Source of the DNA: Acidobacteriota bacterium
Lineage (GTDB): Bacteria > Acidobacteriota > UBA6911 > RPQK01 > JAJDTT01
DNA: 64,000 bases
Direction of reading: 5' to 3'
Assembly (NCBI GenBank): GCA_965209055.1
Contig: OZ242374.1
Location: forward strand, 1,568,001 to 1,632,000
Made by a program: the position numbers and the translations under genes. Positions 15,245 through 42,899 of this stretch are shown here, one piece after another (position 1 is the stretch's first letter; each line of letters opens with the position of its first letter). A model generated the notes under the pieces. That model was given only the letters and a program-made list of their open reading frames with translations. It was not told the origin of the DNA and searched no databases.

Positions 15245-15523
15245 ATGGGCTTCCCGGTGTCGATCCAGAGGTGTGAATGAGACAACGGACGCGAGTTACA
15301 TCGCGGAAGCCTTTTGACTTACACACTCGATTTCCCCGATCTCTTTATCGCTCATGCAGTTACGGCCATATTCCCGGCTCCGCCGCGCCCGCACGGGGAA
15401 ATCGGAGGTTGACGGGAGCGACCCCCCCTTTTTCCTGCCCGGTGCGGGCGCGGGGGTGTTGCGCAACTTACACTTGCGCAACACCCCCTGGGGGGGGTCG
15501 CTCCCGTCCAATTGATCCTGCGG
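15245..15523 (-). repeat. palindromic element copy S1 (interrupted at its core by element B)
   Basis: IR GACGGGAGCGACCCCCCC 15411-15428 / 15491-15508; inner perfect 15 bp hairpin 15452-15488 with loop CTTACAC. Confidence 0.9.
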
Positions 15524-16183
15524 ACTGTTTCTATAATTTCCGTAAACCATTAACTATAAATGAGTTATGAGATTTTCGGGACTGCTCTTCCCCCCATTCT
15601 TTCCACCGGGTTGAATTGGATGTCTTTAGCCCTTCGTGGTCGTGAACGGACGGTAACCGTTCGGTCAAGCCGTGAAGATCGACTTCCTGAGCCGGGCCTG
15701 CGGCCTCGCGCTCAATGGGGGCAAGCACCTGAGGAAGTGCCACGCTTCCACCTCCAACGGGATGGAGGCACAGAGCGGAGAATGTGACCCATGGTGTCGG
15801 AATGATGCGGTCGGGTCGCTTGCTGCGTAAGGACTTCGCGGCCGACCATCACCTGCCGTTATCCTATTCCAGGGAGGTCTTACTGCCGCGAAGAGTGGTT
15901 CAAACCCGGCAGCAACCCAACGGGAATTGATTACTGCGGCGAGGATGCCGACCCACCGCTCTTCTACGGCTTGACCGAACGATTACCATGGACGAGGGCA
16001 GCGGGGTGAAAACACGGATACGTCCCCTGCCGCTTTTTGTGGCGGGCGTTGGCTCTTGCTTGGGTTCTCGCACTGGTCTTTTTCTACTTGCCTTGTTCGG
16101 CGGATAGCCCAGTTCCCGGCGTGAAGAGCCGATCACCGACGAGGAATCACTTTCGATCCGCCGAAGTTCTCCTTTCGGAAAAG
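15524..16183. repeat. conserved non-coding terminal region of element B with 22 bp IR (15652-15673 / 15966-15987)
   Basis: Colinear with the reverse complement of ~40000-40686, with indels that break reading frames. Confidence 0.85.
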
Positions 16184-16189
16184 GGAGGC

Positions 16190-16250
16190 GAGGACGATCT
16201 CCCGGCGCACAACTTTCGCACGTTGCTGCAGGATCTGGGCACGCTGGCTC
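16190..16250 (+). pseudogene. very short IS1634-family transposase C-terminal remnant
   Basis: EDDLPAHNFRTLLQDLGTLA resembles the IS1634 C-terminal PVHSFRTLLADLATL motif. Confidence 0.45.
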
Positions 16251-16671
16251 AGGTCATTGTGACCCGTTCTTGGATCGCCGCCACTGCGGCCTGGGCCGCC
16301 ACGGCCACACCTTCTTGCCAGCCGGGCAAGGCGCTCAATTGATCGCCCGCGAAATAGATCCTCCCATCGGGCTCTCTGAGTTGTCTCGGTGGGTTGGAGC
16401 TCTCCGGCCAGCCGCCCCGCTGAAACGGAACCCTGGACCAAGCGCGGCTAACGCCGGATTCCATCTCGTCGCCATAGCCAGGGTGAATGAGATCGCCCTC
16501 GGTGATGGCGGCCTGCAAGCGTTCGGACGGCGTCAATTCCGAGTACCGCACCCCGGGCTCGGGGTCCCAGATATATGCCCCGAGGACGATCCCCTTTTCA
16601 CGATGATAGCCGTAGGCCGGATACCAAATCTGAGTAATGTCCTGGTCCGTCCACGAAATGCCACCGTAGAG
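16249..16671 (-). pseudogene. 3' fragment of flavin monoamine/L-amino-acid oxidase
   Basis: LYGGISWTDQDITQIWYP...GRIYFAGDQLSALPGWQEG; 5' part missing and replaced by an att-like end. Confidence 0.75.
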
Positions 16672-17259
16672 AAGGGGGGAACCACAAATATACTATAAAT
16701 AACTGATTCTAAATAGAGAATGTTCTTCTTTTGTGTTGGGTTGCCCCCGATGTTGCCCCCACAGCGACAGTTTGATCACCGTTGGCGAAAAAAGCGGGCG
16801 AGAGGTAGAACCAGAGGAAACACGCAAACAATTTGCAACTAGAGAACACCTCTTCCAAGTCATCCGACGACTACGGATCACCTCCGCTATCCATTCGAGT
16901 TTGCCTCTGCTCCCACGCTTCGCTGATCTTTTCCAGCCTTCGCCGCCGGGAATCATCGCACTCCTGCGCGATGAAAGTGAGTTGAAATGGAATCAGGAAA
17001 ACTCGCCATGGAAACTCTGGACCACACCCGAGACTTCTTCAGATTACTGGACCAGGATTGGGATCACAAGATCAGGTTTATCCGTGTGGTCCTTGGTTTC
17101 TCCTCCTAACAACTGCAGGGTCGCAGGTCTTAACGGAGACCAGGATACTTCTGGAAAGAAATGCAGTGCCATCCAACATTGTCGTAGTGACCTTCCCCCG
17201 GAATAAGGTCGACCTCACTCGCGTGAACCACTGCGTCGTTCCATTCATGCCGCTAACAT

Positions 17260-21211: not shown

Positions 21212-22969
21212 CTAGTTCCAGCGCAGTCGGGCGACAAAGTTCTCATACTGCTCGACATAAGCCGCGAGGCGATCCCGGGCCCCACCGGCAAGTCCTGCGT
21301 CGACCAGATCGCTGCATAGGTCTCCTTCGGAAATTCGCGCGAGCAATCGTGCGCGGAACTGGTGACGCCATCCGTTGCGACCTACGGGGGCCCATCCACC
21401 GCGTTCTCGCTCATCCGCCGCAGGTTCGTAGTTGATCAACGAGAAAAGGATCTCCCAAGTGTCGTGCACTTCCTCGAAGCTGGGTAGGACAGCGGCGAAG
21501 CTGTTCCGCCAGTCGTCTAGAACGCTATACAGGTGATCGGAGACGGGCGCGTAGTGATCTTCGAGCCCAGGAAGGCGCTTCCAAAGATCGTTGCGGTTCC
21601 CCTCCAGGAACCATTCGGAGACCAAGTAGACAAATCGTTTCGGGTTTCCGTACCCGTCATCCACAGTTTGCGAGAGCAGACTGTGAAGGTCATGCCATCG
21701 CTTGGCGATAGCCAGGCCGATCCCGTAGGCCCATAGCAGGAGAACCGCTGGGTAGTAGCGCAGATAGGCAACTGCGGGTTCCGTTTCTCCGCATCGGGAC
21801 CACATGGTCACCAGCGCATCGACGACGGAGCCGTGTCCGGTACTGTCTCCCCATCGACCGAGTACTCCAAGTATGCGGGCGAGGGGTTCAGCCGACGACT
21901 CCTGGAAGGCGACCAATTGCTCAATTCCTTCGTTGGTTGCTTTGACATCTGGCATGACGGTGACCAGGCTGTGAGAGAGCCTATCCACCTGAGACTCAAT
22001 TAGATCGTGCAAATCGATCCGGCGGTCATGATCGGCCACGAATCGCTTGACAGTGCCTACGAGCAGGTGAATGTTGTCCGGGTTCTGTCTGTGCGTTCGG
22101 GCCAGTGTTTCTATCCGGTCGCATAGCTTTCCAAAGAATTCGTCGGCGTCCGCAATTGAGATGACGTGGCCTCGCCGGTGGGCGATGATTCGTTGCCCGA
22201 TGTCCCCGATCGGACCACGTGCCGTCCAATACGTCGAATACCGCCGGGAGGGGTTGCTCATGATCGCGTCGGCAAGAGCAACGTCCCACTCGCCTGACCA
22301 TCCGCACACGATTAAGCCGTGGTCGTCGAAAATGCGGTCTAGGAGCCTTGTGAACTCGGTTGCATACTGAGAGAGTTCACGATCAGTGTTTAGGATTCGC
22401 GCATCCTTGTAGTCACCGTGCAGTTTGACCAAGTAACACTTAGCATGGCCAGGCGGTTCGGCTCCTTGGATTGCGTACACCGAGTCGACGACTGTCGGTT
22501 CCGTCCCGCGCTCGCGAAGCGCCTGTTCTAGCAGGCGGTCAAAGTTGGTGGTAATGACCACGCGGACCATCCCCGCACGGACGATTTCGGCAATTGCATG
22601 ATGCGCCCTCGTCGGAATCTTCCGTCCACGTTGCAGTTCCTCTTCGGTCGGTTCGATGTATTCGTTAAGAATGGCTCGGCGCTCGAACTCGGAAGGGCCG
22701 AGTTGGGCAATCAACTCTGAGTAGTTCGGTTGTTTTCCTAACTTTGCCTTATACCAAGCCGCCCAGTCCTGCTGATCTGTCTCTCCTTGGGCAAGAGCTA
22801 CGCGACGGACCAGATCGAGTGTAATTTCCCATCCCGTCGGGATGCCGGCGGATCGGGAGAGTCCCGAACCCAGCAATAGAGCGTAGATGCCCGGGTTACC
22901 GTAGATGCCAAAAGCGAGCTGTGTCAGCTTGTCATCGCTATTGTCGGTGTGGATTGGCTCGAGAGTCAT
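21212..22969 (-). CDS. SIR2-like (SIR2_2) domain protein with unknown C-terminal domain
   Basis: LLLGSGLSRSAGIPTGW, ITTNFDRLLE, KLHGDY, VCGWSGEWD. Confidence 0.88.
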   Translation of the reverse strand: MTLEPIHTDNSDDKLTQLAFGIYGNPGIYALLLGSGLSRSAGIPTGWEITLDLVRRVALAQGETDQQDWAAWYKAKLGKQPNYSELIAQLGPSEFERRAILNEYIEPTEEELQRGRKIPTRAHHAIAEIVRAGMVRVVITTNFDRLLEQALRERGTEPTVVDSVYAIQGAEPPGHAKCYLVKLHGDYKDARILNTDRELSQYATEFTRLLDRIFDDHGLIVCGWSGEWDVALADAIMSNPSRRYSTYWTARGPIGDIGQRIIAHRRGHVISIADADEFFGKLCDRIETLARTHRQNPDNIHLLVGTVKRFVADHDRRIDLHDLIESQVDRLSHSLVTVMPDVKATNEGIEQLVAFQESSAEPLARILGVLGRWGDSTGHGSVVDALVTMWSRCGETEPAVAYLRYYPAVLLLWAYGIGLAIAKRWHDLHSLLSQTVDDGYGNPKRFVYLVSEWFLEGNRNDLWKRLPGLEDHYAPVSDHLYSVLDDWRNSFAAVLPSFEEVHDTWEILFSLINYEPAADERERGGWAPVGRNGWRHQFRARLLARISEGDLCSDLVDAGLAGGARDRLAAYVEQYENFVARLRWN

Positions 22970-23217
22970 TGCGTTCTTGGGACCAGTGCATTTTCGCGAA
23001 GGTGAACTTTCGGCAGCCCGCATCTTAGCCTTCCGGTTCTCGGTCGACCAGACTTAAACGACTGCTGATCCGGGTGCGCCAGGAAGCGAAGCCTCAAGGC
23101 GTAGGTTCTCTTCCAGTTCGAAATTGCTCGGCTATTATCTCGGGCCTACTATCTCGATCTCCCGCCAGTCTCTTTTCGATACAAAATTGCGGCCTGACTT
23201 CATCTATCCCTCTGCCC

Positions 23218-24312
23218 TCAATTGTTGGACTTTCTGCGATTGCAAGACTTGCACAGCATTTGGCAGTTCTCCTTTTTTGTCTTGCCCCCCTTCGACCATG
23301 GGGTGATGTGATCGCCCTCCATTTGGGAAATCTCAAATGCCTTCTCGCATGTAGGGCAAATGCCCTTTTGCCTCTCGAACGCGCCCTGCTTCATGGAATC
23401 GGAAAAGACACGGATGTTAAGGTGCTTTTCCTCGCCGGTGAGGAGATACGGGTATATTCCCGCCTTCTTTGTCACGTCGTCGTCCATCATCAGGCGGGCA
23501 ACGTCCGCCTCAATTGCTTCGGGATCCAGGCTCTCGTCTCTAAGGAGTTCATATAGCCCTCCCCAATCCACGCCCTTCATTTGCTTGCGGTAGTTCGGGA
23601 AAACCGCCTCCACCCGGTTAATTACCGCCTGGAAGTGACTCCACAAGGCGGTTGCGGTCTTGTCGTGCTGATGCGCGGCCATGTACTCCTCAACCGTCTG
23701 GCCCTCGTCCTTAATCCATTGGATCGCGGTTTCGAGGTACTCTTGGCGGTCCGCCCTCCCTTTCACATACCGGCTGCCGATTGCATAGGCCGGGCAGGCA
23801 GCCCCCTTCCGGCTGAAATACCGCTTTGCGTCGGACACCCACGGGCCAGCATAGACCGCGTTCCGCAACTCCTGGGCGGTCAGCTTCTCGCCCGCGATGT
23901 TGATAATCCGAAACCACGCGAGCTTCTCGCTCGCCGTCCCCTCGCAGATATAGACCTGCAATGGGTAGTTGAGAATCTGTTCCTGCTCGTCGTCTTGCAG
24001 GTTGTGGAAATACCGCCCATCAAGGGAGTAGTCCCCTTCCACGTACTGCGCGGCTGAGATTGTGCGCTGCTGACCGTCAATGACCTCATACGTTCCGTCT
24101 TGGCGCACGGCCCAATACATCACATTGAGCGGAAAGCCCTTGTTGATTGTCTCGATCACCGCATCGCGTTGCTTGTCCTTATAGACGAACTCGCGCTGAA
24201 AAGGCGGGCGGATGTCGAGCTTGCCGCCATAGCCGCGCACCCCGCCTTCGCCGTTGTCATGGTAGTCCTCCACAAGGTCGCGGACTGTGATTTTCTTCAG
24301 ATCAATTTTCAT
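23218..24312 (-). CDS. DUF262 (ParB/GmrS-like) plus HNH endonuclease
   Basis: RPPFQREFVY, VIDGQQRT, C-terminal CPTC...GDHITPWSKGG...NCQMLCKSCN. Confidence 0.9.
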   Translation of the reverse strand: MKIDLKKITVRDLVEDYHDNGEGGVRGYGGKLDIRPPFQREFVYKDKQRDAVIETINKGFPLNVMYWAVRQDGTYEVIDGQQRTISAAQYVEGDYSLDGRYFHNLQDDEQEQILNYPLQVYICEGTASEKLAWFRIINIAGEKLTAQELRNAVYAGPWVSDAKRYFSRKGAACPAYAIGSRYVKGRADRQEYLETAIQWIKDEGQTVEEYMAAHQHDKTATALWSHFQAVINRVEAVFPNYRKQMKGVDWGGLYELLRDESLDPEAIEADVARLMMDDDVTKKAGIYPYLLTGEEKHLNIRVFSDSMKQGAFERQKGICPTCEKAFEISQMEGDHITPWSKGGKTKKENCQMLCKSCNRRKSNN

Positions 24313-25367
24313 TGCGGCGGCACTCTTTTAATCAGAAGGCGAACATAAGTGGGCCTGAACTCGGTCCCAACTCTTATTACACCCCTTCTATTCAGATTGC
24401 CTGCGTTGGGCATGTCTGCCGACGAGTATTCTTTCGTTTTCAGACCGGAGTTGTTGTCCCTGTCTGTTATCCCCAAGACTTCGAACTGCTCCGGGTTGTG
24501 CTTGTCCAGAAACGTGACCGGCACCCCCATCGCGCCGTCCCAATCCATCGGGATGTTGGCGATCCTGTCCACGTTGATCGCATCGTAGTTGTCGTAGGCC
24601 GGGTATTCCTCCGGCGAGTACCGCTTGTAGAGGATCAGTTCGTCGTGGCGCTTCTTATGGTCGAGATTGGTGAACCAGGCCGCGTTACCCAACCGTCCTT
24701 TAATCACCCCCTCGACGACTCTATAGGCACTCCCCTCCTTTGCGGTCGCTACCAATTCCTGCGCGTAACCCTCCGGCACATCGAACAGCATATCCTGGCC
24801 TTTCGGGGTTACGCCAAGCCACGTCCTGTTGTCCTTGATTAGAGGGAAAACCTCCTTGTAGGTGACGGCGTTCTGACTCCCGACGATCAGGAACTTCTTG
24901 CCGTACTCGACCAGTTGGGCGACGTATTCGCGGAACAGCGAGAACGGCGGGTTGGTCACCACGATGTCCGCCTGCTTCAGAAGTTCGATGCATTCCGCGC
25001 TACGGAAATCGCCGTCCCCTTCAAACGCATGGACCCCAATATCCTCTACGTCGGGCACCCTGCCGCCCTTACTGTTTCCCTTGTATTCGAGCCATACCGC
25101 CCGCTCCGTATCGTGACGGCTGAACAGGTCGCGGTCCTGGTTCTTGTAGCATGCGGTGATGAGCTTCTTCAGGCCCAGGCGCTCGAAGTTGTACGAGAAA
25201 TAATGGAAGAAGTTGGAGAATCGGGGATCGTCGCAATTGCAGTAGACAACCTTGCCGGCGAAGTGTCCGGTATAGTGGCGGAGTTCGTTCTCGATGTCGG
25301 AAAGCTGCGTGTAGAACTCATCGTTCTTCTGCCGCTTGGCCTTTCGCAAGTTTTCATTCAGAGACAT
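24309..25367 (-). CDS. adenine-specific DNA methyltransferase, EcoRI family
   Basis: KNDEFYT, VYCNCDDP, GDGDFRS, VVTNPPFSLFREY, YDNYDAI, MGVPVTFLDK. Confidence 0.92.
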   Translation of the reverse strand: MSLNENLRKAKRQKNDEFYTQLSDIENELRHYTGHFAGKVVYCNCDDPRFSNFFHYFSYNFERLGLKKLITACYKNQDRDLFSRHDTERAVWLEYKGNSKGGRVPDVEDIGVHAFEGDGDFRSAECIELLKQADIVVTNPPFSLFREYVAQLVEYGKKFLIVGSQNAVTYKEVFPLIKDNRTWLGVTPKGQDMLFDVPEGYAQELVATAKEGSAYRVVEGVIKGRLGNAAWFTNLDHKKRHDELILYKRYSPEEYPAYDNYDAINVDRIANIPMDWDGAMGVPVTFLDKHNPEQFEVLGITDRDNNSGLKTKEYSSADMPNAGNLNRRGVIRVGTEFRPTYVRLLIKRVPPQ

Positions 25368-26175: not shown

Positions 26176-26313
26176 CGACTAAGACGCAACTATTGTAACG
26201 CGAAACGTTACGCGCTGCGAAGCTTCGGTCACTGGCCAGCGGCTGCGCGACTCTACGAAAGGATCTGACACCGGGGAACGAAGGTTACAGTGACTTCGTC
26301 TTGAAACAGATTA

Positions 26314-26570
26314 CCTTCCCGCAAGGGGATCAATGGGACGGGAGCGACCCCCCGAGGCGATGGCACGGAGAGTGCACATCAGCCTACCCCGCTTTGCCGA
26401 TCCGGGAGGCAAAAAAGGGGGGTCGCTCCCGTCCATCTCCGCTCTCCCCGAGCGGCAGCCCCAAGCCGCGAGGCAATCCGTAACCCGAACAGGGACAGTG
26501 AGTTAGGAGAACACGTTCGTGCACATCGAAAGGCCCCTTTCGTGCACATGCCCCCTCTTGTCCTATGTGC
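26314..26570 (+). repeat. palindromic element copy S2 (divergent, intact core)
   Basis: CCTTCCCGCAAGGGGATCAAT followed by IR GGACGGGAGCGACCCCCC...GGGGGGTCGCTCCCGTCC (~26336-26434). Confidence 0.8.
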
Positions 26571-28431: not shown

Positions 28432-28825
28432 ATCCAGATCCTTTCGAAAACCTTTCCCTTTCCTCTGGTAACTTTCTTTGGTCCAGTAGAATTATAGGGA
28501 AAATTGGCCATTGCAAGCGGCAGAACGCGATCACTATAGCGTACTGTGGAATGAGGCGTAAGTGTTTCGGTGCGGAACCCACCTGCGAGTCAGCAGTTCC
28601 TCAGACACATCACATCGGCAACAGTTGGTCCACCGACCACACCGAGCCCGCCAGTCCCGCCTCCATCGCCGGGGTGCATGAGAGCGTTCGATGGATGCGA
28701 CCGAAGTTATACCAGAAGAAGTGCAGGGACAACGCCGCCCGCTTCCTGAGGGCCTCCAGCCGTTGCTCGTGGATGTCAGGGACGCTCATGCGTCCCATCT
28801 TGCCCGTCAGGGGTGTCATTTGTGG

Positions 28826-29740: not shown

Positions 29741-29784
29741 TCCTCCTGTTGGCGCCGGCCAAGCATTGGACGGGTTCGGTGGTG

Positions 29785-32245: not shown

Positions 32246-32365
32246 CCATCGACAAGCGCCTGGGCCGCTTGCTTGGCCTCCCATTGAAAGTTTCCGTTGT
32301 CCTCCCCCATGCGGCGCATTTTCTCACGACAGGCTGGAATTCTCCCTTCCCCATCTTCGCAGAGG

Positions 32366-32650
32366 CCTTCCCGCAGGGATCAATGAAGAAGTGAGCGACC
32401 CCCCCCCGCGCATGCCGCGCCGGTGTGCAACGGAGTGGAACACGGGCAGCGCCTGCGTGACGTGCGAGGCACGAAAACAGGGGGGTCGCTCACTTCTCCT
32501 CCCCGGACTCTCCGTCCGGGCGCGCCTCCTCCGGAAGGACGGGGACAAACCGAAGGGAATCAACAAGATGGCGGAAAGGGGGCTTGTGAAACTCGCCGCT
32601 CCGAGAGTGGAACACACCCCCCCATGTCTGTTTCACATCCCGGGACTTCG
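32366..32650 (+). repeat. palindromic element copy S4 (compensatory variant, intact core)
   Basis: CCTTCCCGCAGGGATCAAT; IR AGAAGTGAGCGACCCCCC 32387-32404 / GGGGGGTCGCTCACTTCT 32480-32497. Confidence 0.85.
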
Positions 32651-32879: not shown

Positions 32880-33180
32880 GGATGGGGGCGATGGCCCGCT
32901 CCCGCCGGAGGTCGTCGCGGGCCACCGCGACCACTTGCACCGGGGGGTCTTGTGCGCGCAGCGCGGCCCAGAGCCGGGCGTGCTCCGCCCCCCACGAGCG
33001 TAGCTCCGAGTCGGCGTCCCGGCCGGGATCGACGTAGGCGAAGGTCGCCCGGTCCTCCTCCAAGGCCAGGGGGAGCTTGCGGGGGAAGTATCGGCTCCGC
33101 CCCTGGGCATGGACGGTATTGTGGCGGCACGGGAACAGCCGCCGGGAAAGGCCCAGCGCCTCCAGCGACTGCGACTGCTG
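32880..33180 (-). pseudogene. internal fragment of a paralog of the Replic_Relax-like protein
   Basis: RYFPRKLPLAL..ATFAYVDPG..LRSWGAEHARLWAALR..VQVVAVARDD aligns with the 14321-15244 product. Confidence 0.8.
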
Positions 33181-33202
33181 CGTCACCTGCGGATCGACAG
33201 TG

Positions 33203-33501
33203 TTCATGGGGAGGTGAAAGGGCTTCCCGGTGTCGATCCGGGAGTGTAAGTGAGACAACGGGGGCGACTTACAACAGGGGAGCGATTTCACTTACACACG
33301 CGATTTCCCCGATCTCTTTGTCGCTCATGCAGTTACGGCCACATTCCCGGCTTCGCCGCGCCCGCACGGGGAAAGCGGAGGTGGACGGGAGCGACCCCCC
33401 CTTTTTCCTGCCCGGTGCGGGCGCGGGGGTGTCGCGCAATTCACATTTGCGCCACACCCCCTGGGGGGGTCGCTCCCATCCAATTGATCCCTACGGGAAG
33501 G
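33203..33501 (-). repeat. palindromic element copy S5 (intact core)
   Basis: Close direct copy of ~15231-15523, including the last codons of the rep-like gene; core ATCCCTACGGGAAGG at 33487-33501. Confidence 0.9.
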
Positions 33502-33622
33502 TCAGAAATGACACCCCTGGCGTGGCTGAATAGAGCCTGATGAGCGACCGGAACGGTAGCTTGAAACGGTCCCCCAAGTCACTAGGGGCCACGATGCTCT
33601 TCAGCCGATTCGGGGTCGGATG

Positions 33623-35065
33623 TCATTCCACCACTTCTCTCCACCATACATCACCTACCCTGACCGCACACTTCAGATCCACTGCGTTTGGAGGAGCTGG
33701 AATACGTGCGTCGCCTACATAATTGAGTACGACTGTTCCGCTTGGTCTCCCTCCGAACCATCTCAAGGTGTCGACCCACCGTCTCCCAGAATTCTCGATG
33801 GAATGATTGGACTCGTCGCGGGAATGACACCCAACAAGGTATTCAGAGAGCCGGTAGGTTTCTTCAAACGACCCCGTGATACGACACTGGGAGGGATTCG
33901 GCCATTCTCCGGGGAAAACTTGGCAATCAACGGAGAGCCAAGAGGCTTCCTGGGACATCCTCTTGAATGTCCTGTGATACTCAAACGGATCTGCGTTTGG
34001 CTCGGGTGGATGTGAGTCTGTCTTCTCTGGAATAAGCCTGCGGTCAAGATAGACCTCCCACTTCAAATCCTTAGTCCCTGCATAAATTCTGATCTCCCTG
34101 CGAACCTCCTGAACAATCCCCGGAGAGACTTTGCCTTCGAACGCCGTTATCCGAACGTCGCGTTCGAAACCCACTGCGGCGCGGATGATGCGGCAATCGA
34201 GATCGAATAGTCCACGATTGTGGATCTGGATGTGATAATAGGATTCATCACTTTCTATGACAGATCCGAAATACTCGATTCGAACCTCGGACGCCCCATA
34301 CGTGTACACGAGCTTTCCTTCAAAGCTGTCCACGGGTTCAGGCTCTGGATCTATTCCAAGAATCCAACTCCTAAGGACGGTTGTGTTGGAGTAACTTCCA
34401 GTACCAGAATGATTCGTGGCGCCTGCGACCCCCACCTGAGCCCATCCCTGCATGGTCCACAAGAGAAGCGGCCCGCCGCTATCTCCACACTCGATGTACC
34501 CACCCTGCTCACCATCAGTTCCAGCTAGCAAGACACGACCCACGTGCCCAATTCTCACAGGGGCCTTCTGTAGGAACACTGGACTGGCCGAGCGCGGCGC
34601 TTCCTCATCACAAGACCCAACAGACCGAGTTCTCCCCCACCCTACCGATGCTCCAATGTCTCCCTGGGACACCTCATCGTGAAGAGGGACAGGGGAGATT
34701 TCAGACACGCGCTCTGACAAGAAGATGATGGCGATATCAAGATCATCGTGAAGGTCGAAATGAGCAGATCTCTGAAAACGGGAAACTCTTCTGTCGAAGT
34801 AGATCCAAGCACTGTCAGAGTCCTCCACGCAGTGCTTCGCTGTGAGAACTCTGTCGGGAGCAACGAGGCTGCCTGTGCAGGAGAAAGTGCCTTCTCCGAC
34901 TCTGCTGCTGATCTCCACTACAAAGGGAAATTCCCCAGGAACAACGTCGCTTCCTCCAACGATGTGATCGTAATCGGTCTCTACAGAGCCCCCCTCACCT
35001 GAGAGTGGGGAGACTAGCGCCGTCAACGACAGAAGTGCTATCGGGATCGCACGGCACATACTCAT
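33623..35065 (-). CDS. secreted trypsin-like (S1) serine protease with C-terminal extension
   Basis: Signal peptide, IVGG, LTAKHC, DIAII, GDSGGP. Confidence 0.88.
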   Translation of the reverse strand: MSMCRAIPIALLSLTALVSPLSGEGGSVETDYDHIVGGSDVVPGEFPFVVEISSRVGEGTFSCTGSLVAPDRVLTAKHCVEDSDSAWIYFDRRVSRFQRSAHFDLHDDLDIAIIFLSERVSEISPVPLHDEVSQGDIGASVGWGRTRSVGSCDEEAPRSASPVFLQKAPVRIGHVGRVLLAGTDGEQGGYIECGDSGGPLLLWTMQGWAQVGVAGATNHSGTGSYSNTTVLRSWILGIDPEPEPVDSFEGKLVYTYGASEVRIEYFGSVIESDESYYHIQIHNRGLFDLDCRIIRAAVGFERDVRITAFEGKVSPGIVQEVRREIRIYAGTKDLKWEVYLDRRLIPEKTDSHPPEPNADPFEYHRTFKRMSQEASWLSVDCQVFPGEWPNPSQCRITGSFEETYRLSEYLVGCHSRDESNHSIENSGRRWVDTLRWFGGRPSGTVVLNYVGDARIPAPPNAVDLKCAVRVGDVWWREVVE

Positions 35066-35200
35066 CTCACCTCTCTTGACGCAACGATCCTGGAGTTTTC
35101 GGAGGCGAAGAACCTTTCTTGGTGTAGTTTCCTGTGTCTACTGATGGGATAGTGGAGATCACCTGATTTCTATTGGTCGCCAAGAGGCTATTTCCCGCGG

Positions 35201-35485
35201 CTAGACACGCTCGGCAATCCGGCGGCCAGACTCGATTTCTTCTCGCCGCAGTTTCCAGGTCTTTTGTAGGTTCAGCCACACCTGCGGGGTTGTCCTGAAG
35301 TAGCGCGCCAAACGCAATGCCGTATTGGCTGTCACACGCTGCTGCCCATTCAGGATCGCCGTAATTCGATTCACGGGCACATCCAGCGCCTTCGACAGCG
35401 CATTAGCCAACATGTCAAGAGCATCCAGTTCGTCCCGTAAGATCTCTCCCGGGTGCACCGACCGCATCCCATTTGTGAAGTTCAT
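35201..35485 (-). CDS. higA: orphan HigA-family antitoxin
   Basis: VHPGEILRDEL, VPVNRITAIL, TALRLARYF..WLNLQ. Confidence 0.85.
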   Translation of the reverse strand: MNFTNGMRSVHPGEILRDELDALDMLANALSKALDVPVNRITAILNGQQRVTANTALRLARYFRTTPQVWLNLQKTWKLRREEIESGRRIAERV

Positions 35486-35760
35486 TGCCTCGACTCCCTC
35501 AGTTTCCGATCTTCCCTCAACTGGCAACGAGGAGCAACCGTGGTGCCCCGGAGCCCTCCGTCTCAGTTTCATGGTATACGGGGTGTGAGTGCCGCACCGA
35601 TCATGCTCGTTTGGCGACTCCGGGATTTATCTCGCTTGCCGCTTATGGTCCCCCCATAGACCGTCCCGCGAGGATGCGGCAACGTCCCTCACCGGACGCT
35701 GTGTTACATTGACGGGTCCATGAGCAGGCACAAACAAGAAGTCCGACCGGTGCAGGAAGG

Positions 35761-37608
35761 ATGTCGCCAAAAATATCCGGCCACTGGAAACCGAGAATCC
35801 TGGCCGTGATGCTCGCCGCTCTGGTGCTGGGACTTGGCCCTTCAGCGGCGGCGCAATCGCGAGATGATTTCTCCTATTGGGACGGCAACAGGGACCTGAC
35901 CTGCTCCGAAGCATTGAACCGCGATGAGGGGCTGCGGTTGCCGGCGTACAAGGACAACCGTGATGGCACCGGGATCATCTACGAGTGTCTTAAGCGGCAG
36001 CGGTCGAGCGACACGGACAACGACGACATCGCCTGTGACTCATCGTCGAACCCTAAAGGATACATTCCAAAAACACGAACCGAGGATCCGCAGCCCACGG
36101 GGTGCCCGCCGGATGCAGAGACTTGGCGCGGGCTGAAGGTCTGCGCGGAGCGGTCACGCGACGGCTACGATCGCGATGACTACGGATCGAGATACAAGAG
36201 TCTGGAAGACGACATCATCGCGGCGATGCCAGCGACGATGAAGAAAAATGGGCAGGTTTACACCCCGTATTCCTGCATCCTGTTCGACATTACGCCAGCG
36301 GGGACGGCGGCCACGGACATCGAGCACATCGTCGCTCTGGCGGAGGCGCACGACAGCGGGATCGCCGACTACAGGCGGCGGGACATCGCGAGCGACCTCG
36401 ATAACCTGACGATCGCAGACCCGACGGTGAACCGGTCGGCAAAGAGAGACCGGGATGCCGCCGAGTGGATGCCGGATCGACACGGCGCATGGTTCGCAGC
36501 TCGCGTGATTGCCGTGAAGCAAGAATATGAGTTGAGCGTCGACCCGGCGGAGCGCGACGCGCTCGAAAGGCTCCTCGGCGGCGATGAAGCCGAACTGAAC
36601 TGCGTTGGCGCGGTTTCCGTTCCGGGGGCGCCATCATTATCCGCCCGAGATGGCAATGGGACCGTGATACTCAGGTGGAATCCGCCAGCCAATGACGGCG
36701 GTGCGGCGGTCCTCAGCTACGATGTCCGCTATCGCGAGTCGGGCGCCAGCTGGGGCTCCTGGATGGAAGTCGAGGGTGGTACCACTGCACGCAGTACCAC
36801 CATCAAGGGACTGACCAATGGGACATCCTATGAATTCCAAGTGAGGGCAGTGTACGCCGACGGCGGCGGCCCGCCGGCCACGACGGAATCTACGCCCATG
36901 CCAAGTCTGCACTTCGCCCACTTTGCCAACGGTGAACAACGCGGAGTCACCATTACTTCTGAGATCGTCCTGATGAACGTGGAGAATTCCAAGATCTACC
37001 CGGTGGTCCTCTTCTACAACCAGATGGGTGAGCAGATTGACGCCGGAAGGGTCGTGGACCTGATGGAAGGCCTGATGATCACGGCGGATGGAGGCGTGGC
37101 ACCGGCCATGGGTCTCAAGGGCTTGGGCGAGATCACCATCCCGACCAACGGTCGAGGGGCCTTGGTGATCGGGTCGGCTAATGTGTTCTCAGACGGCCGC
37201 ATCGGCGGATTGCTGAGATTCATCGTCCCATCGCTCGGAGTGGCCGGAGTGGGAGCCAGCGAGCCCGTCAACGATGCCATATTTCCGGCTCGTTGGATGA
37301 AGGACGGCATCAATACCGGAGTTGCGATCCGTAACCTCAGCCCAGAGCGCACGACGGTCACTTGCGACCTGATGCGGGGCGGCCAAGTGGTGGAGCCGAA
37401 GGATGTCCCGCTCGACGGAGACGGGCATAGCTCTCAGTTTATTACCGAGGTGTTTGCTGACACCTTCACGAATACGGAAATGACCGAGTTCGTGGGGTCG
37501 GTGCGCTGCCGGGCGCCCGAGGGGTCCATGTTCACCGGCGTGGCCCTGGAGATGGATTTCAACCACCGGATCTTCACCACGCTTCCGATAGTGCCGGTCA
37601 ACCAATGA
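35761..37608 (+). CDS. secreted DUF1524/HNH-type nuclease with Ca-binding-like N-terminus, fibronectin III and C-terminal domain
   Basis: Signal peptide; DTDNDDIAC; DIEHIVALAEAHDSG..NLTIA..VNRSAK; FN3 (LRWNPP..YDVRYR..GLTNGTSYEFQVRA). Confidence 0.8.
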   Translation: MSPKISGHWKPRILAVMLAALVLGLGPSAAAQSRDDFSYWDGNRDLTCSEALNRDEGLRLPAYKDNRDGTGIIYECLKRQRSSDTDNDDIACDSSSNPKGYIPKTRTEDPQPTGCPPDAETWRGLKVCAERSRDGYDRDDYGSRYKSLEDDIIAAMPATMKKNGQVYTPYSCILFDITPAGTAATDIEHIVALAEAHDSGIADYRRRDIASDLDNLTIADPTVNRSAKRDRDAAEWMPDRHGAWFAARVIAVKQEYELSVDPAERDALERLLGGDEAELNCVGAVSVPGAPSLSARDGNGTVILRWNPPANDGGAAVLSYDVRYRESGASWGSWMEVEGGTTARSTTIKGLTNGTSYEFQVRAVYADGGGPPATTESTPMPSLHFAHFANGEQRGVTITSEIVLMNVENSKIYPVVLFYNQMGEQIDAGRVVDLMEGLMITADGGVAPAMGLKGLGEITIPTNGRGALVIGSANVFSDGRIGGLLRFIVPSLGVAGVGASEPVNDAIFPARWMKDGINTGVAIRNLSPERTTVTCDLMRGGQVVEPKDVPLDGDGHSSQFITEVFADTFTNTEMTEFVGSVRCRAPEGSMFTGVALEMDFNHRIFTTLPIVPVNQ

Positions 37609-37657
37609 CGAATAGAGAGCATCAATCCCACGGCCTCTCGCAGGATCCAATGTCATA

Positions 37658-38131
37658 TCAAACGGGTCGTGGCCAAGTTTTCCAATTTGAGGGGTTTTCG
37701 CCGCGCCGCTCGATCTCCTCTATGAGAGCCTGAATCGAGTGGGACGATCCCCAGCCATCGGCCGGGGCCAACCCATCCCGGACAATGTGAGGTCGTCCTG
37801 GGAGATAGGTCTTCGATTCGCGGAGGCTAATCCCCAACCGGCGGTTCGGGATCCACATGTGGTCTTTGACTGCGAATCCCCACGGCCACAGATCTGCTCC
37901 TGGGATCGACGATGAAAGCTCATGCGGTCCGTCTTTGGCAGCCCTCTGAAGACCCATGAAGACCATGTTCCCCGGACCGGGGAAATAGATCAGGATGAGA
38001 TCATTCTTCTTGACCTGATCCCGATATTTCCACCCTGTACTTTCGGTAAAGTGCTGATGTTCAAGGTCGCGGCAATTCCAATACTGTTTCGGATTTTGGC
38101 CGTCACCTTTCATTGCTTGCCAGATAGCCAT
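37658..38131 (-). CDS. hypothetical protein, possibly EVE/PUA-like
   Basis: QVKKNDLILIYFPG...WPW pattern. Confidence 0.5.
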   Translation of the reverse strand: MAIWQAMKGDGQNPKQYWNCRDLEHQHFTESTGWKYRDQVKKNDLILIYFPGPGNMVFMGLQRAAKDGPHELSSSIPGADLWPWGFAVKDHMWIPNRRLGISLRESKTYLPGRPHIVRDGLAPADGWGSSHSIQALIEEIERRGENPSNWKTWPRPV

Positions 38132-38395
38132 TCAAAGTTTCCCCTTTTTCCCTGATGGGATTGAATCAGGTCACACGACCGGAAACGGGAATCTAATTCC
38201 CGGGAATCATCCAGTCAATATGTTGAGCAAGACCGCGAGGCTGGCGACCATGATAGCAAGACGCCACATCTTCGCCTCACTCGCGACGATCCTGGTTTCC
38301 AGACGGACAACCGCAGCATCAAGATTGGATTTGGTCGCCAGTTGCTCCCCGACTGGGATGGATTCTGCCTCTCTCCGAGCCGTGTCATTGGATGC

Positions 38396-38899
38396 TCAAT
38401 ATCCGAATCGAGACTTCTGGTGTGGGCATGTCGTGCTCCTCTTGTACCGTGTCGGCAAGTCGCGATACCAGTCGCGGTAAGACACACGAGGTGGTTTGCA
38501 ATCACAAGAGGGAAAAGTCTCTGCTTCGTATTTTGCACGTTCCCAGTCGTGTTTTAGCAGCAATGCTATTCGACAAGCAAATGCCTCAGCGTGCTCCAAT
38601 TCCTTACCATCTGGCGGAAGTGTTACGCACTTGAGGATCTCCATATCCTCTATCCCGTGTTCGTCCTCGTAGTACGGATTGAGTCGCGCACGCAACTCAC
38701 TTCTGAGCCGATTAAGTCTCTTCTTGTCTCTACCAATCATGGCATCGTGAATGCACAATGCTGTCCATCTCACCTTCTCTCGCCACTTCGTCCGTTCTTG
38801 AGTGACATTCTCAACGCGCAGACGCTTTGACGCGATGTGCCAAGTGATGAAGGCAGTAATTGCTACGGGCAGTGTAGCTAGAGCCAAATCGTAAATCAT
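38396..38899 (-). CDS. hypothetical membrane-anchored protein
   Basis: N-terminal TM, TQERTKWREKVR, LLKHDWERAKYEA. Confidence 0.65.
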   Translation of the reverse strand: MIYDLALATLPVAITAFITWHIASKRLRVENVTQERTKWREKVRWTALCIHDAMIGRDKKRLNRLRSELRARLNPYYEDEHGIEDMEILKCVTLPPDGKELEHAEAFACRIALLLKHDWERAKYEAETFPSCDCKPPRVSYRDWYRDLPTRYKRSTTCPHQKSRFGY

Positions 38900-39022
38900 T
38901 TTCTTGGTTTGGGTTTCCTGACGATTTGAGGGACGTGTGATGGGGGAAAGATCGAAGTAGACGCGCCTCCTCCAAGTTTCAAAGACGAACCCGACGTGGA
39001 CTTCTAGAGAGAACCGTACGTG

Positions 39023-39586
39023 TCACAGACGGAGGAGGGACGACTGGACAATTTCTCGAGTCAATACTTGCCGCTGATCACAGGTCTGTCGCAATTCTCG
39101 ACTAGCGCTAGAGTCCCGACGATCTCTCCCATGCCACAGCGTTGTGAGAATTCCTTCTCTCTTCACGGCCTCGATTGCAGGTACGAAGTCGCTGTCCCCG
39201 GACAACAGCACTACCTTTGCGAGTCGATTCTTCGCGGCTAGCAATGCCATGTCCACGCCTAGCATGAGGTCAACACCCTTCTGTTGGAATATCCGTTTGC
39301 CGTCCGAGTCCGTACCGCGGAGCACGAGCTTCCCCAATCGCACGTCGAAGTTGGGAATGTTCCGGAGTGCGTCCTCAAAGCGCCGCCAGGAGCTATAGCG
39401 AGCCCTCTCGTCTTCGGTGGGTGGGTTGCTCTGATACGGTCGACAATTATAGTAGTAGGTGCGGAGTAGTACATCGTCCCCAACCATGGCATCAACAAGA
39501 AGTCGAAAATCAACCCTTGCTCGTGAGTGTTCGTGCTGGAGCACCTTTTCGAGATAAGCCCCGTCAATGAATACTGCTGTGAACAC
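39023..39586 (-). CDS. NYN (LabA/DUF88, PIN-like) ribonuclease
   Basis: VFIDGAYL, QKGVDLMLGVDM, LSGDSDFVP; probable GTG start at 39586. Confidence 0.9.
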   Translation of the reverse strand: MFTAVFIDGAYLEKVLQHEHSRARVDFRLLVDAMVGDDVLLRTYYYNCRPYQSNPPTEDERARYSSWRRFEDALRNIPNFDVRLGKLVLRGTDSDGKRIFQQKGVDLMLGVDMALLAAKNRLAKVVLLSGDSDFVPAIEAVKREGILTTLWHGRDRRDSSASRELRQTCDQRQVLTREIVQSSLLRL

Positions 39587-39614
39587 TGTGGATGCCTGTT
39601 GGGAAGCACACCAG

Positions 39615-39654
39615 AAAAGGGAAAGGGCCGGAACAAACCGGCCCTTTCCTTTTT
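39615..39654 (-). terminator. intrinsic terminator-like hairpin in the NYN leader
   Basis: GGAAAGGGCCGG-aacaaa-CCGGCCCTTTCC flanked by A/T runs. Confidence 0.65.
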
Positions 39655-39751
39655 TCATTTTTTCCCACCGTGCCTTAGGAATACTACGGGATCCGAAAAA
39701 GGTTGCAGTCCCGGCTCCATCAGGAACGATGGGGTCCATTCCGTCAGAGCC

Positions 39752-39875: not shown

Positions 39876-39995
39876 CACAGTTCCCGGGCCATCCACTTGA
39901 CTTCGCCGATCACCTCAGCCTCACCCCATGGCTCGGACGCCCAAGCCGGATGATCGCTGACAAACTGCTAGTCGCCGGCATCATCTTTCCCGGCT
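39876..39995 (-). pseudogene. C-terminal remnant of S24/CI-like repressor
   Basis: AGKDDAGD*QFVSDHPAWASEPWGEAEVIGEVKWMAREL. Confidence 0.55.
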
Positions 39996-39999
39996 CACT

Positions 40000-40686
40000 T
40001 TTCCGAAGGGAGAACTTCGGCGGAGCGATAGTGATTCCTACTCGGTGATCGGCGCTTCACGCCGGGAGCAAGGCTATCCGCCAACGAGGCAACTACTAAG
40101 CGACCGGTGCGATGCTCGAACAAGCGAGGTGGTACATGGGCATTCACCGGCGGTGTTTCCCCGACCCTGACGCTAGGCGGCTTGGTCTAGAGCCCAGGGT
40201 CGAAACTCGTCCATGGAGTCCACGGGTAACCGTTCGGTCAAGCCGTGGAAGAGCGGTCGTTCCGCATCCTCGCCGCAGTGCCCAATTCCCGTTGGGTTGC
40301 CGTCGGGCTTGAACCACTCTTCGCGGCAGTAAGACCTCCCTGGGAAAGGATAACGGCAGATGATCGTCGGCCGCAAAGTCCTTACGCAGGGCGATCCGAC
40401 TGCATCGTTCCGACACCGTGGGTCAGGTTATCCGCTTTGTGCCTTCATCCCGTCGGAGGTGGAAGAGTGGCACTTCGTCAGGTGTTTGATCCCCATTGAG
40501 TGCGAGGCCGCAGGCCCGGCTCCGGAAGTCGATCCCCACGGCTTGACCGAACGGTTACGTCCGTTCTCGGCCACGAAGGGCCAAAGACATCCAATTCAAC
40601 CCGGTGGAAAGAATGGGGGGAGGAGCGGTGATGGAAATTTCATAACTCATTTATATAGAATGGTTTACGGACTTTAGAAAAACAGT
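40000..40686. repeat. conserved non-coding terminal region of element A with perfect 23 bp IR (40226-40248 / 40536-40558)
   Basis: Inverted homolog of 15524-16183. Confidence 0.85.
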
Positions 40687-40925
40687 CCGCAAGGGATATT
40701 TTGGACGGGAGCGACCCCCGCGCCCGCACCGGGCAGCAAAAAGGGGGGGTCGCTCCCTTCCACCTCCGCTTACCCCGTGCGGGCGCGGCGAAGCCGGGAA
40801 TGTGTCCGTAACTGCATGAGCGAAAAAGAGATCGGGGAAATCGGAGGTGTAAGTCAAAAGGCTTCCGCGATGGAACTCGCGTCCTTTGTCTCCCTTACAC
40901 TCCCCGATCGACACGGCGGAGCCCT
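40687..40925 (+). repeat. palindromic element copy S6 (interrupted by element A; inner hairpin deleted)
   Basis: CCGCAAGGGATATTTTGGACGGGAGCGACCCCC..GGGGGGGTCGCTCCC..GAGATCGGGGAAATCG..CTTACACTCCC. Confidence 0.9.
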
Positions 40926-40966
40926 CTTTGCCCTCGATCCCCGACGATCTGGTCGGCCTCCAAGTG

Positions 40967-41245
40967 TCAGAGCCGCCTAACGTACCCGGTCTTCACTCTC
41001 CAGGTCCGATCCTGAACCGATCCGTCGACCCACCGCCAGGCGACGACCTGGAGGCTCGCGCCCCAATGCTCGAACACGGAGGATCGGCCGGAATGCTCCA
41101 AGGTCAACGTTCCGGTCCGCTGGTCCCAGTTCACCGACTCCACCCGGTAGATCGCAAACTCTCCTCCGGGGAAGACCACCTGCACCCCTCCCTTCGGTCC
41201 CCTCACGCCCGCTCTCCGGTCGCACTCCTCAAAGCAGATCCTCAA
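40967..41245 (-). CDS. small hypothetical protein
   Basis: ORF downstream of integrase B; no motif recognised. Confidence 0.3.
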   Translation of the reverse strand: MRICFEECDRRAGVRGPKGGVQVVFPGGEFAIYRVESVNWDQRTGTLTLEHSGRSSVFEHWGASLQVVAWRWVDGSVQDRTWRVKTGYVRRL

Positions 41246-41293
41246 CAGTACTACGACCCGTTCATCGGGCGTGGGAGCCTGGATGGATCCGAT

Positions 41294-42502
41294 TCACGTG
41301 CTCACAGCCTTCAACTGATCCAGGTAGTCCGCCCAGTCGTCCATGAGTCGCCTTCGCCGCTCGAAGAGGTCCGTTCGCCGGTAGGCCGCCTCGATCGGGT
41401 TGCGCACCTTGTGCGCCAGCGCCGCCTCCGCCACCTCGCGCGGATGATCCGTCTCCTCGGCCGCCCAGTCCCGGAAACTCGACCGGAACCCGTGCGGCAC
41501 CGCCGCGATCTTCAACCCCCGGAGCAGTTCCGACATGGCCGTGTTCCCGATGGGCTTTCCGCCCGCCCTCGGAAAAACGAGCGGGCTGCTGCCACCGAGC
41601 GCCTGCGCCGCCTCCAGGATCTCCAACGTTCGTCGGGCCAACGGGACCCGGTGCTCCCGGTTCCCCTTCGTCCGTGGGGCCGGGATGGTCCATACTCCTT
41701 CCTCCCGGTCGATCTCCTTCCACGCGGCCCCACGGACCTCGCCGGAGCGTGTCGCCGTCAAAACCAGGAACTCGAACATCAGTTTCAACAACGGCCGCGC
41801 GTTCGACGCCCGCACCGTCTGGAGTGCGGACGCCACTTCGCCGTGAGGCACTGCCCGCATGTGGCGCACGGCGTTCCCTTGCGAGCCGAGCACCGGACCG
41901 ATCCGGTCGCACGGGTTGTCGGGCCGAAGATCCATCGCTACGGCCCACTCCAGGACCGCGCGGATGCGCTGGCGCAGCTTCCGGGCGGTGGGCGCCTTCT
42001 CGTGCCAGATCGGAGCCAGGATCCCGATCACGTCCGCGCTCGTCACCTCCGCAATCGGCATCTTCCCGATATGAGGCAAGACGTGGCGCTCCAGGCTTCC
42101 CAGCCAGAGCCGCGCATGCAGGGGGGAGCGCCAGCCCGGTCGCAGTTGTTTCCAGACTGTCCGGGCGGCGTCCGCGAAGGTGGGCATCGACCCGGCCCGC
42201 CGCTTCTCGGCTCGGGGGTCGCCCCCGTCACGGGCCAGCTTCCGGTTGGCGAACGCCTTCTCACGGGCTTCCTTGAGCGAGACGAGGGGGAATCCGCCGA
42301 GCCCGAGCTCGGTTCGGCGGCCCCGGATGGTGAGGCGTTGGATCCAGCCCCGGCTGCCCGTGGGCCGGACGTCGAGATAGAGGCCTTGGCCGTCGCAATA
42401 GCGTCCGGCCTGGTTCACGTTGCGGACAAAGGCCGGGGTCAGGGCGTTGAGGGGATGCCGGCCGCGTGGCTTGCGTTTCGGAGGTCGTTTTGTAAGTCTC
42501 AT
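41294..42502 (-). CDS. tyrosine integrase of element B (close paralog of 31025-32245)
   Basis: Same catalytic motifs and near-identical N-terminal half; upstream ~150 bp also shared. Confidence 0.95.
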   Translation of the reverse strand: MRLTKRPPKRKPRGRHPLNALTPAFVRNVNQAGRYCDGQGLYLDVRPTGSRGWIQRLTIRGRRTELGLGGFPLVSLKEAREKAFANRKLARDGGDPRAEKRRAGSMPTFADAARTVWKQLRPGWRSPLHARLWLGSLERHVLPHIGKMPIAEVTSADVIGILAPIWHEKAPTARKLRQRIRAVLEWAVAMDLRPDNPCDRIGPVLGSQGNAVRHMRAVPHGEVASALQTVRASNARPLLKLMFEFLVLTATRSGEVRGAAWKEIDREEGVWTIPAPRTKGNREHRVPLARRTLEILEAAQALGGSSPLVFPRAGGKPIGNTAMSELLRGLKIAAVPHGFRSSFRDWAAEETDHPREVAEAALAHKVRNPIEAAYRRTDLFERRRRLMDDWADYLDQLKAVST

Positions 42503-42899
42503 ACCTACCACTATACATACCACCATATGGTGGATGCAAGGGGATGAAGCGGGCCGGTATGGGACAAGGCCGGATGTCCGGTCTAGTTGTAAACCAATCA
42601 AAAACAAACACTTATGAACAATACTGGACTTACCTGGACGATGTAGCTGATTAAATCAAGGAAGCCCTGCGGGAAGGCTCCAAGAGTACCTGTCTGTGCG
42701 TGGGCCCATGAAAACAGGTCAGGGATGTATGCCGACGTGCACGCGAAAGACTCCATATAGTGTCGGGACGTGAACCTCGTTCTGGCTGGCTTGGAAGAAG
42801 TGACCCGGCAGGACGCAGATTCCCACCTCTGCAATGCAAGGCGCATTTCCGGCAGCTTCTCCCCCCCCCCGGTTTTCCTCGGCCGTCGCTTCGGCAAGA

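Follow-up and report, generated by a model that had tools for sequence, protein, structure and literature searches.

Nested islands at a tRNA-Phe gene

The stretch of DNA considered here (the window) comprises 64,000 nucleotides of a sponge-associated Acidobacteriota bacterium (GenBank assembly GCA_965209055.1, contig OZ242374.1, positions 1,568,001 to 1,632,000), the 6.08-Mb genome of which is metagenome-derived and assembled as one contig. Three P4-type tyrosine integrases, int0, intA and intB, are encoded in the window, and they mark three nested levels: element A lies within element B, which lies within an island at a tRNA-Phe gene (Table 1). Six hairpins, S1 to S6, are spread over the same region, and their arm, a 13-mer, occurs 13 times where 0.36 occurrences are expected, a number reached in 0 of 100 shuffled sequences. 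Elements A and B are very probably P4-type integrase islands of a single family, with an ordinary integration mechanism, whose target attachment site (attB) is the end of the hairpin-bearing repeat, termed R1 below.

The junctions of both elements are defined to the base. The left junction of A, read base by base, is GCCTTC-CCGCAAGG-AATGTCG at 30849, and its right junction at 40681 is AACAGT-CCGCAAGG-GATATTTTGGAC, followed by hairpin S6 after a spacer of 12 nt. On the minus strand, the integrase end of B reads GCCTTC-CCGCAGG (42678-42666) and its far end AACAGT-CCGCAGG-ATCAATTGGAC, followed by hairpin S1. A is thus bounded by direct repeats of 8 bp (CCGCAAGG, at 30855 and 40687) and B by direct repeats of 7 bp (CCGCAGG, at 42672-42666 and 15523-15517). 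IntA and intB are 87% identical at the amino acid level (tblastn) and, each with 140 bp of upstream DNA, form a 1359-nt inverted repeat of 88% identity that begins exactly at the two half-sites (30849 and 42678), while int0 and intA share 30.7% identity (tblastn). The integrase-side arm carries the motif CGTCCAG-N4-GTCCAG, which is kept in 10 copies in this genome and in loci of other genomes, making it a candidate for the arm-type sites. The far-end arm of B repeats that of A in inverted orientation, with 134 nt at 87% identity and more blocks up to about 700 bp (79% over 723 nt by blastn); a frameshift distinguishes the A and B versions of a conserved open reading frame (ORF) in this arm. 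When A is deleted in silico by script, the rejoined sequence is identical to S3 at 255 of 297 aligned positions and, at 282 of 318, to a vacant paralogous site that lies behind another member of the intA subfamily; deletion of B gives a site identical to S5 at 344 of 400 positions.

A preliminary description of this DNA, made from the letters alone, had proposed just such an arrangement: A nested in B between site-specific short direct repeats, two closely similar integrases beside half-sites, hairpins S6 and S1 lacking the CCTTC half and abutting the same terminal sequence, and the restoration of a site like S3 on removal of A and like S4/S5 on removal of B. The paired cores, the AACAGT-core junctions with their inverted-copy arms and the in silico deletions bear these points out, with S5 taken for the comparison in the case of B. 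The further targets that it placed in B (S2, S3) and in A (S4, S5) all fit the pattern of an intact site. It mentioned neither the tRNA-Phe island level nor the 72-copy nature of the hairpin, the usual home of R1 in 26-copy Xer-like elements or the other repeats targeted by sister integrase subfamilies, all of which are described below.

The outermost level is marked by two copies of 17 nt from the 3' end of tRNA-Phe, one at 12545-12561 and a second that is likely the far boundary of an island of about 40 kb, which makes three levels of nesting in all. Behind int0 and a 307-amino-acid ORF comes S1, so that the R1 copy occupied by B belongs to the tRNA-Phe island. S6 has the same position behind intB as S5 has behind intA, and A occupies S6, B's own R1 copy.

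In the far-end arm of A, perfect inverted repeats of 22 bp (GTAACCGTTCGGTCAAGCCGTG) enclose a segment of 290 bp (40248-40535), the segment and repeats together spanning 40225-40558 in A and 15652-15987 in B. Five copies in this genome have the orientation seen in A, two copies in this genome and three in other genomes are inverted, and two further inverted copies are partly visible in the comparison of arms within the genome. From this arrangement, the segment looks like a DNA inversion switch.

Table 1. Coordinates of the islands, attachment sites, R1 copies and genes in the window
Feature	Position	Strand	Remarks and evidence
tRNA-Phe(GAA), attachment gene of outermost island	12492..12566	+	ARAGORN; Rfam tRNA 71.5 bits
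Outer tRNA-Phe island	12545-52720		~40 kb
int0, integrase of outer island	12733..13950	+	Pfam Arm-DNA-bind_3, Phage_int_M, Phage_integrase
R1 copy S1, attR of B	15199..15523	-	tail, hairpin (15414-15505), spacer, core CCGCAGG (15517-15523); without GCCTTC
Element B	15517-42672		27.1 kb; within tRNA-Phe island
Far-end (attR-side) arm of B	15524..16198	-	inverted copy of A's arm
B cargo: Upx-like defence protein, 1256 aa	17260..21030	-	PADLOC PDLC02221, E 2.8e-133
B cargo: SIR2-domain defence protein (PDC-S65)	21212..23023	-	PADLOC E 2.5e-198; Pfam SIR2_2
B cargo: type II restriction-modification pair	23218..25367	-	Pfam; PADLOC
GmrSD_N/HNH nuclease of the pair	23218-24312	-	PADLOC REase_II 6.1e-144
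EcoRI-type methylase of the pair	24309-25367	-	PADLOC MTase_II 2.9e-118
R1 copy S2, type b, intact target in B	26313..26455	+	hairpin 26340-26430; DNA fold z -5.5
Small zinc-ribbon ORF remnant left of S3	28610-28822	-	
R1 copy S3, type a, intact target in B	28824..29060	+	hairpin 28851-28941
Small zinc-ribbon ORF	30695-30844	-	
attL of A	30849..30862	+	GCCTTC + core CCGCAAGG
Element A	30855-40686		9.8 kb; inverted within B
Integrase-side arm of A	30863..31003	+	motif CGTCCAG-N4-GTCCAG; conserved
intA, P4-type tyrosine integrase	31004..32245	+	Pfam Arm-DNA-bind_3, Phage_int_M, Phage_integrase
R1 copy S4, type c, intact target in A	32364..32493	+	hairpin 32391-32493
R1 copy S5, type a, intact target in A	33172..33503	-	hairpin 33387-33477; counterpart of S6 in B
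A cargo region	33623..39739	mixed	Pfam; weak PADLOC matches
A cargo: trypsin-like protease	33623-35065	-	
A cargo: HTH protein	35201-35572	-	
A cargo: fn3/GmrSD_C-like protein	35761-37608	+	
A cargo: NYN nuclease	39023-39739	-	
Far-end (attR-side) arm of A	39983..40686	+	
R1 copy S6, attR of A	40687..40924	+	core CCGCAAGG (40687-40694), shortened hairpin (40707-40757, internal deletion), tail; downstream of intB
intB, P4-type tyrosine integrase	41294..42607	-	Pfam Arm-DNA-bind_3, Phage_int_M, Phage_integrase
attL of B	42666..42678	-	GCCTTC + core CCGCAGG
HATPase_c_3 protein, part of outer island	43198-45453		
17-nt direct repeat of tRNA-Phe 3' end	52704-52720	+	direct repeat search, 100%

The R1 repeat and its carriers

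R1 is a genome-wide repeat, for which 72 hairpins are found by pairing of the arm motifs; according to the hairpin interior these belong to type a (54), b (8) or c (10). Used as a BLAST query, S3 yields 67 matches in the genome with a sharp left edge of similarity at GGCCTTCC, which places the attachment core in the first ~15 nt of R1, and with tails of 200-420 nt. The copies are about 72-93% identical. All three types are predicted to form a long outer stem that encloses two stem-loops (z -5.0 to -6.2), and the pairing is maintained by compensatory changes in type a (for example CG 35 / AU 5 / UA 3 and UA 30 / GC 12) and by the joint alteration of both arms in the type-c and GCGC variants.

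R1 does not correspond to several kinds of element that a structured repeat may bring to mind. The R1 copies of the window and three further loci have no Rfam match at E<=1, the sole match of S1, 'Plastid-psbJ-5' at 30.9 bits, being under the gathering score of that family. A tRNA mimic was rejected, as ARAGORN calls only 2 of the 72 hairpins and one copy at a further locus (L108); ARAGORN finds no tRNA at the sites of A and B, and R1 lacks an Rfam tRNA match. None of the seven DDE_Tnp_IS1595 matches lies on the core side of an R1, which speaks against an IS1595-type insertion sequence end, and the two genome matches to the Y1 HUH transposase family PF01797, expected for IS200/IS605 or REP/RAYT-type ends, are not near R1. 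A scan of 28600-29400 for promoter consensus sequences found none.

R1 usually resides on small mobile elements of a different kind. Of the 58 Phage_integrase matches in the genome, 26 belong to one Xer-like family, and all 26 have R1 on their 5' side and a second repeat, R2, 0.8-6.3 kb further on and in register. Seven compact copies of these Xer-like elements have common sharp boundaries. The left end begins with GGGGGACTAACAGTCCC, followed by sequence that resembles a tRNA's 5' half as far as the anticodon stem-loop, and the right end is R2, which terminates in ...GGGACTAACAGTCCCCCCTCC; the element is thus flanked on both sides by the same 15-nt stem-loop, GGGACTAACAGTCCC (e.g. L104, G000:C1:4661500-4665100). 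The host elements measure 3-10 kb and are integrase-only, and the cargo found between R1 and R2 includes NucS-like and MmeI-like proteins. In some copies the loop is inverted (GTT for AAC), and the elements adjoin remnants of the ends of neighbours, an arrangement which suggests that they may accrete in tandem. R1 is also found behind P4-type integrase genes, among them intA, intB and int0; in B, three R1 copies come after intB at intervals of about 2 kb. Two islands of the subfamily to which A and B belong (subfamily 1) occupy the exact interval between a host element's Xer-like integrase and its R1, and they are the clearest support for the use of another element's site. At G000:C1:3379318-3381705, a trio of adjacent Phage_integrase matches lies between a subfamily-1 integrase and its R1 copies.

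The preliminary description called the hairpin 'origin-like', and if R1 were an origin of transfer or replication, the islands might insert there in order to be mobilised with their host, as has been proposed for streptococcal elements located in the oriT of conjugative elements. A large conserved hairpin beside a conserved short sequence does recall the layout of transfer origins, and the host elements are mobile. However, the genome contains no match to the relaxase families PF03432 (Relaxase) and PF08751 (TrwC) or to the coupling protein family PF02534, the only three families searched, and hosts of 3-10 kb with nothing but an integrase do not fit this role; together with the missing Rfam family, this leads us to drop the term and to regard an origin as highly unlikely. 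R1 is better described as the element-borne repeat whose end serves the A/B family as attB.

Two further features adjoin R1. A small zinc-ribbon ORF (MTPLTGKMGRMSVPDIHEQRL..., with CPxCG in the longer copies) often starts 6 nt beyond the core; it is present in about 13 copies in the genome, every one beside R1, and its matches to zinc-ribbon families are sub-threshold only. The GGAAGG of the half-site is, from its placement, probably the ribosome-binding site of this ORF, and insertion of an island parts the ORF from the hairpin. The copy at S3 is a chimera with an IS1595-like C-terminal tail. Secondly, the approximately 680 nt between the inverted R1 copies S4 and S5 (32494-33171) are conserved at 88-93% in seven copies. 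A 166-amino-acid ORF in this interval has no Pfam or PADLOC match and shows no codon periodicity in 243 variable columns of the seven copies, and it was rejected as a gene; by these sequence criteria, the interval appears to be a conserved unit that does not encode protein and has inverted R1 ends as its borders.

Site specificity in this and other genomes

The genome encodes 16 full-length paralogues of intA (62-100% amino acid identity, tblastn), which differ in the sequence that they adjoin. The five closest (A, B, 3143626, 3383919 and 3920074; 87-100%) all start about 150 nt after CCTTCCCG..AGG. Five others at 82-84% identity adjoin another conserved sequence with the core CCGCCGGG, five at 62-65% adjoin a stem-loop resembling the R2 end, and one paralogue is unclassified. 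The target of the 82-84% subfamily is a dispersed palindromic repeat of about 165 nt (e.g. L105, G000:C1:67500-71000) that has no Rfam match and is present in about 20 or more copies, with the two halves adjacent at about a dozen places. At the opposite end of the islands, 13 far ends were located, six of which abut CCGC.AGG, the spacer and the hairpin without GCCTTC, and five the second target, one of them in inverted orientation; among the eight far ends with a subfamily-1 terminus, the R1-type junction is found in six. The core copies are equal at both ends in A (CCGCAAGG), in B (CCGCAGG) and in the element at 3383919 (CCGCTAGG).

The same junctions recur outside this genome. Relatives of the integrase with 60-95% identity are found in records labelled Acidobacteriota, Longimicrobiales/Palauibacter, Gemmatimonadetes, Gammaproteobacteria and Aminicenantes; short-read bins among these may be mis-binned, and the safe cases for taxon labels are complete chromosomes, in which integrases of at least 80% identity lie at the same junction under the labels Acidobacteriota and Longimicrobiales. 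The nearest phage integrase is at most 40% and the nearest plasmid integrase at most 47.5% identical. Among 27 loci in other genomes, 10 have the CCTTCCCG..AGG-type junction, 2 adjoin the second target and 15 show neither or a partial resemblance. Twelve far ends were found in four genomes: six abut CCG.AGGGAT, the spacer and GGGAGCG, one does so partially, three abut the second target and two other sequence. Ends with equal cores pair at distances of 4-16 kb in these four other genomes. The flank comparison of integrase homologues, set beforehand in the preliminary description, thus agrees with it upstream (five of five in the subfamily in this genome, 10 of the 27 loci elsewhere) and at the distal end (an R1 foot at 6 of 13 far ends here, and six clear and one partial case of 12 elsewhere). 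Intact targets, defined as core, spacer and arm, number 56 in the source genome and 1-22 in each of the same-genus genomes (8 of 8); one copy each is present in three of six genomes of a sister genus, and 2 of 16 genomes from other families of the order contain the pattern, the reversed control pattern giving 0 everywhere. No usable empty B site was obtained from the same-genus genomes, three of eight giving only partial matches of 75-76% to the right flank of B.

Conservation of the fold raises the question of whether the integrase might recognise the hairpin itself, extruded or single-stranded, as integron integrases do with attC, with the core being only the crossover point. The three types differ in their interiors yet share the outer stem and its spacing from the core, compensatory changes preserve the stem, and of the 100 CCTTCCCG-N1-3-AGG motifs in the genome (56 preceding a hairpin arm and 5 subfamily integrase-side arms), the 39 that have neither are never seen occupied. 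Yet occupancy differs little between motifs that have a hairpin (6 of 62) and those that lack one (at most 2 of 41), the crossover takes place in ordinary duplex 12 nt beyond the stem, and the integrase is of the arm-binding P4 type, intA matching none of the integron-integrase models of NCBIfam and having an NCBIfam PRK09692 domain match below cut-off. Moreover, of the seven attR sites found in other genomes, four retain just the spacer plus the first hairpin arm and have no fold (z -0.2 to +1.0), so that the constant part is about 35 nt of duplex sequence and not the hairpin. We therefore consider recognition of a folded hairpin rather unlikely; the P4-type integrases of the A/B family presumably recognise double-stranded sequence at the end of R1.

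The reading of A and B as nested P4-type islands also has to be weighed against the possibility that the R1 sequences at the junctions are the islands' own end machinery or scars, and that the nesting is only apparent, having arisen by homologous recombination or misassembly. The 72 R1 copies and 16 integrase paralogues offer ample substrate for both, and the public data leave the junctions uncovered: the sequencing data comprise 23 runs, available as contigs rather than reads, and in the four runs compared with the window no contig bridges a junction or shows a circle or empty-site joint, such as one linking 30862 to 40687. Several other observations weigh against site-specific nesting or the activity of the integrases. 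The estimated contamination of the source genome is 7.4%, scans for attP junctions returned 0 (two patterns in the genome contigs, and the metagenome contigs), at a low power indicated by an attL control of only 2, and no excisionase was recognised, the small ORFs of the arms having no Pfam match. In addition, 2 of the 13 far ends in the genome abut neither repeat, the far end of the subfamily-1 element at 3920074 was not found, and the candidate ends of the one at 3143626 carry unequal cores. On the other hand, the junctions are base-precise with 7-8-bp repeats, the R1 at each far end runs on into the flanks of the host (S6 into intB and S1 into the tRNA-Phe island), and four other assemblies contain junctions of these types. 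Contigs of run X1, which is labelled sponge metagenome and comes from a separate study, match the cargo of both B and A, the differences amounting to 2 over 1787 nt and 10 over 4021 nt, showing that the organism or a near twin is present in that sample. In view of this, apparent nesting has very little probability, and insertion of A and B by P4-type integrases at R1 ends is the reading that we adopt.

One X1 contig matches 30215-30864, up to the crossover point of A, and continues with 215 letters unlike the window; it may represent an empty or differently occupied site.

Cargo, proposed mechanism and relation to known systems

The preliminary description saw in these elements an accumulation of defence cargo. 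This holds for B, which carries an Upx-like protein, a SIR2-domain protein and a type II restriction-modification pair; for A, with weak PADLOC matches, a role in defence is only suggested. Two duplications were noted in B: a perfect 18-nt tandem duplication (19546-19581) within the Upx-like ORF, and an internal 165-nt duplication (29421-29469 / 29586-29634, 88%) in the gene of a 156-amino-acid predicted secreted protein on the minus strand (29321-29791), which has no Pfam match.

We propose the following mechanism. Upon excision, the circle would contain an attP composed of the far-end arm, the 7-8-bp overlap, CCGC(A)AGG, and the arm on the integrase side; conserved repeated motifs resembling arm-type sites are present in both arms. 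The integrase would recombine this attP with an attB formed by the first ~15-35 nt of R1, that is CCTTC, CCGC.AGG, GAT and the spacer, at the foot of the ~95-nt Y-shaped hairpin. As R1 is carried by mobile elements, each island would land on another element and bring fresh R1 copies with it. In the window, the tRNA-Phe island would have arrived first, followed by B, which probably entered the R1 copy S1 of that island, and then by A, which probably entered the R1 copy S6 of B. In this scheme the integrases would be active. The mechanism itself is ordinary; the unusual part is the target, which is multi-copy, element-borne and self-propagating. The earlier idea that the islands parasitise hairpin-bearing elements is retained as far as the target's presence on other mobile elements and on the invaders is concerned, and doubted with regard to recognition of the hairpin, since four of the seven attR sites elsewhere have the first arm only.

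A broader scheme can be drawn more tentatively, in which the islands form a landing-pad network across phyla in sponge microbiomes. Sister integrase subfamilies would each be specialised on a different structured repeat, subfamily 1 on the foot of R1, subfamily 2 on the CCGCCGGG core in the ~165-nt palindrome and subfamily 3 on the stem-loop end of the Xer-like elements. The repeats would be spread by elements, insertions would multiply the sites, whole elements would be captured in an integron-like manner, and the hairpins might even be read in folded form. We regard this as possible, and as clearly less probable than the insertion of A and B at R1 ends.

P4 and CP4-57-type genomic islands are integrated at tRNA genes by arm-binding tyrosine integrases. 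A and B share with them the integrase architecture, the integrase gene at one end, conserved arms, short direct repeats and the cargo in between, and the outer tRNA-Phe island is a textbook case. In contrast to these islands, the attB of A and B is the end of an element-borne 72-copy repeat and not the 3' part of a tRNA or tmRNA gene, with the consequence that dozens of sites are available per genome and that islands nest; the tRNA target is the one point on which A and B were seen to depart from the P4 type. In integrons, genes accumulate beside hairpin-bearing attC sites by tyrosine recombination, and the outcome is similar here, as had been suggested. Unlike in integrons, however, the inserted units are complete elements that bring an integrase and arms of their own, rather than promoterless cassettes beside a single intI/attI; intA is not an IntI-type integrase, and the crossover occurs in duplex outside the hairpin. 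IS1111-attC insertion sequences, group IIC-attC introns and Tn5053-type res-site hunters also target structured or recombination sites of other mobile elements, but they do so with a DEDD transposase, a reverse transcriptase and TniABQR, respectively, and do not form cargo islands, whereas an arm-binding tyrosine integrase is present here.

Tycheposons of marine Prochlorococcus reportedly use tRNA genes as sites, in contrast to the element-borne repeat used here. They resemble A and B in that they too employ a tyrosine recombinase and give rise to variable islands in marine bacteria (bioRxiv 10.1101/2020.12.28.424599). The nearest analogue for target choice are streptococcal integrative mobilizable elements, which insert site-specifically in the putative origin of transfer (oriT) of Tn916- and ICESt3-family elements (PMC5357655) and likewise combine a tyrosine integrase with a site within another mobile element. 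They differ from the islands described here in that the hosts here are small and non-conjugative, with no match to the two relaxase families and one coupling-protein family searched, and in that the target is multi-copy and also present on the invader. A literature search, with the supplementary element tables of sponge-metagenome papers and of PMC5357655 outside its scope, found no paper on R1 or on these islands.

Sponge symbionts have been reported to be rich in defence genes (PMC5649159, PMC5099237). For the gathering of such genes by sponge symbionts and their sharing between unrelated bacteria, a concrete route is visible here, namely a mobile, multi-copy target for an ordinary integrase. 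If the integrases are active, the islands would provide a testable model of how defence islands grow by nesting, as well as a set of integrases with short, defined and portable attB sites.

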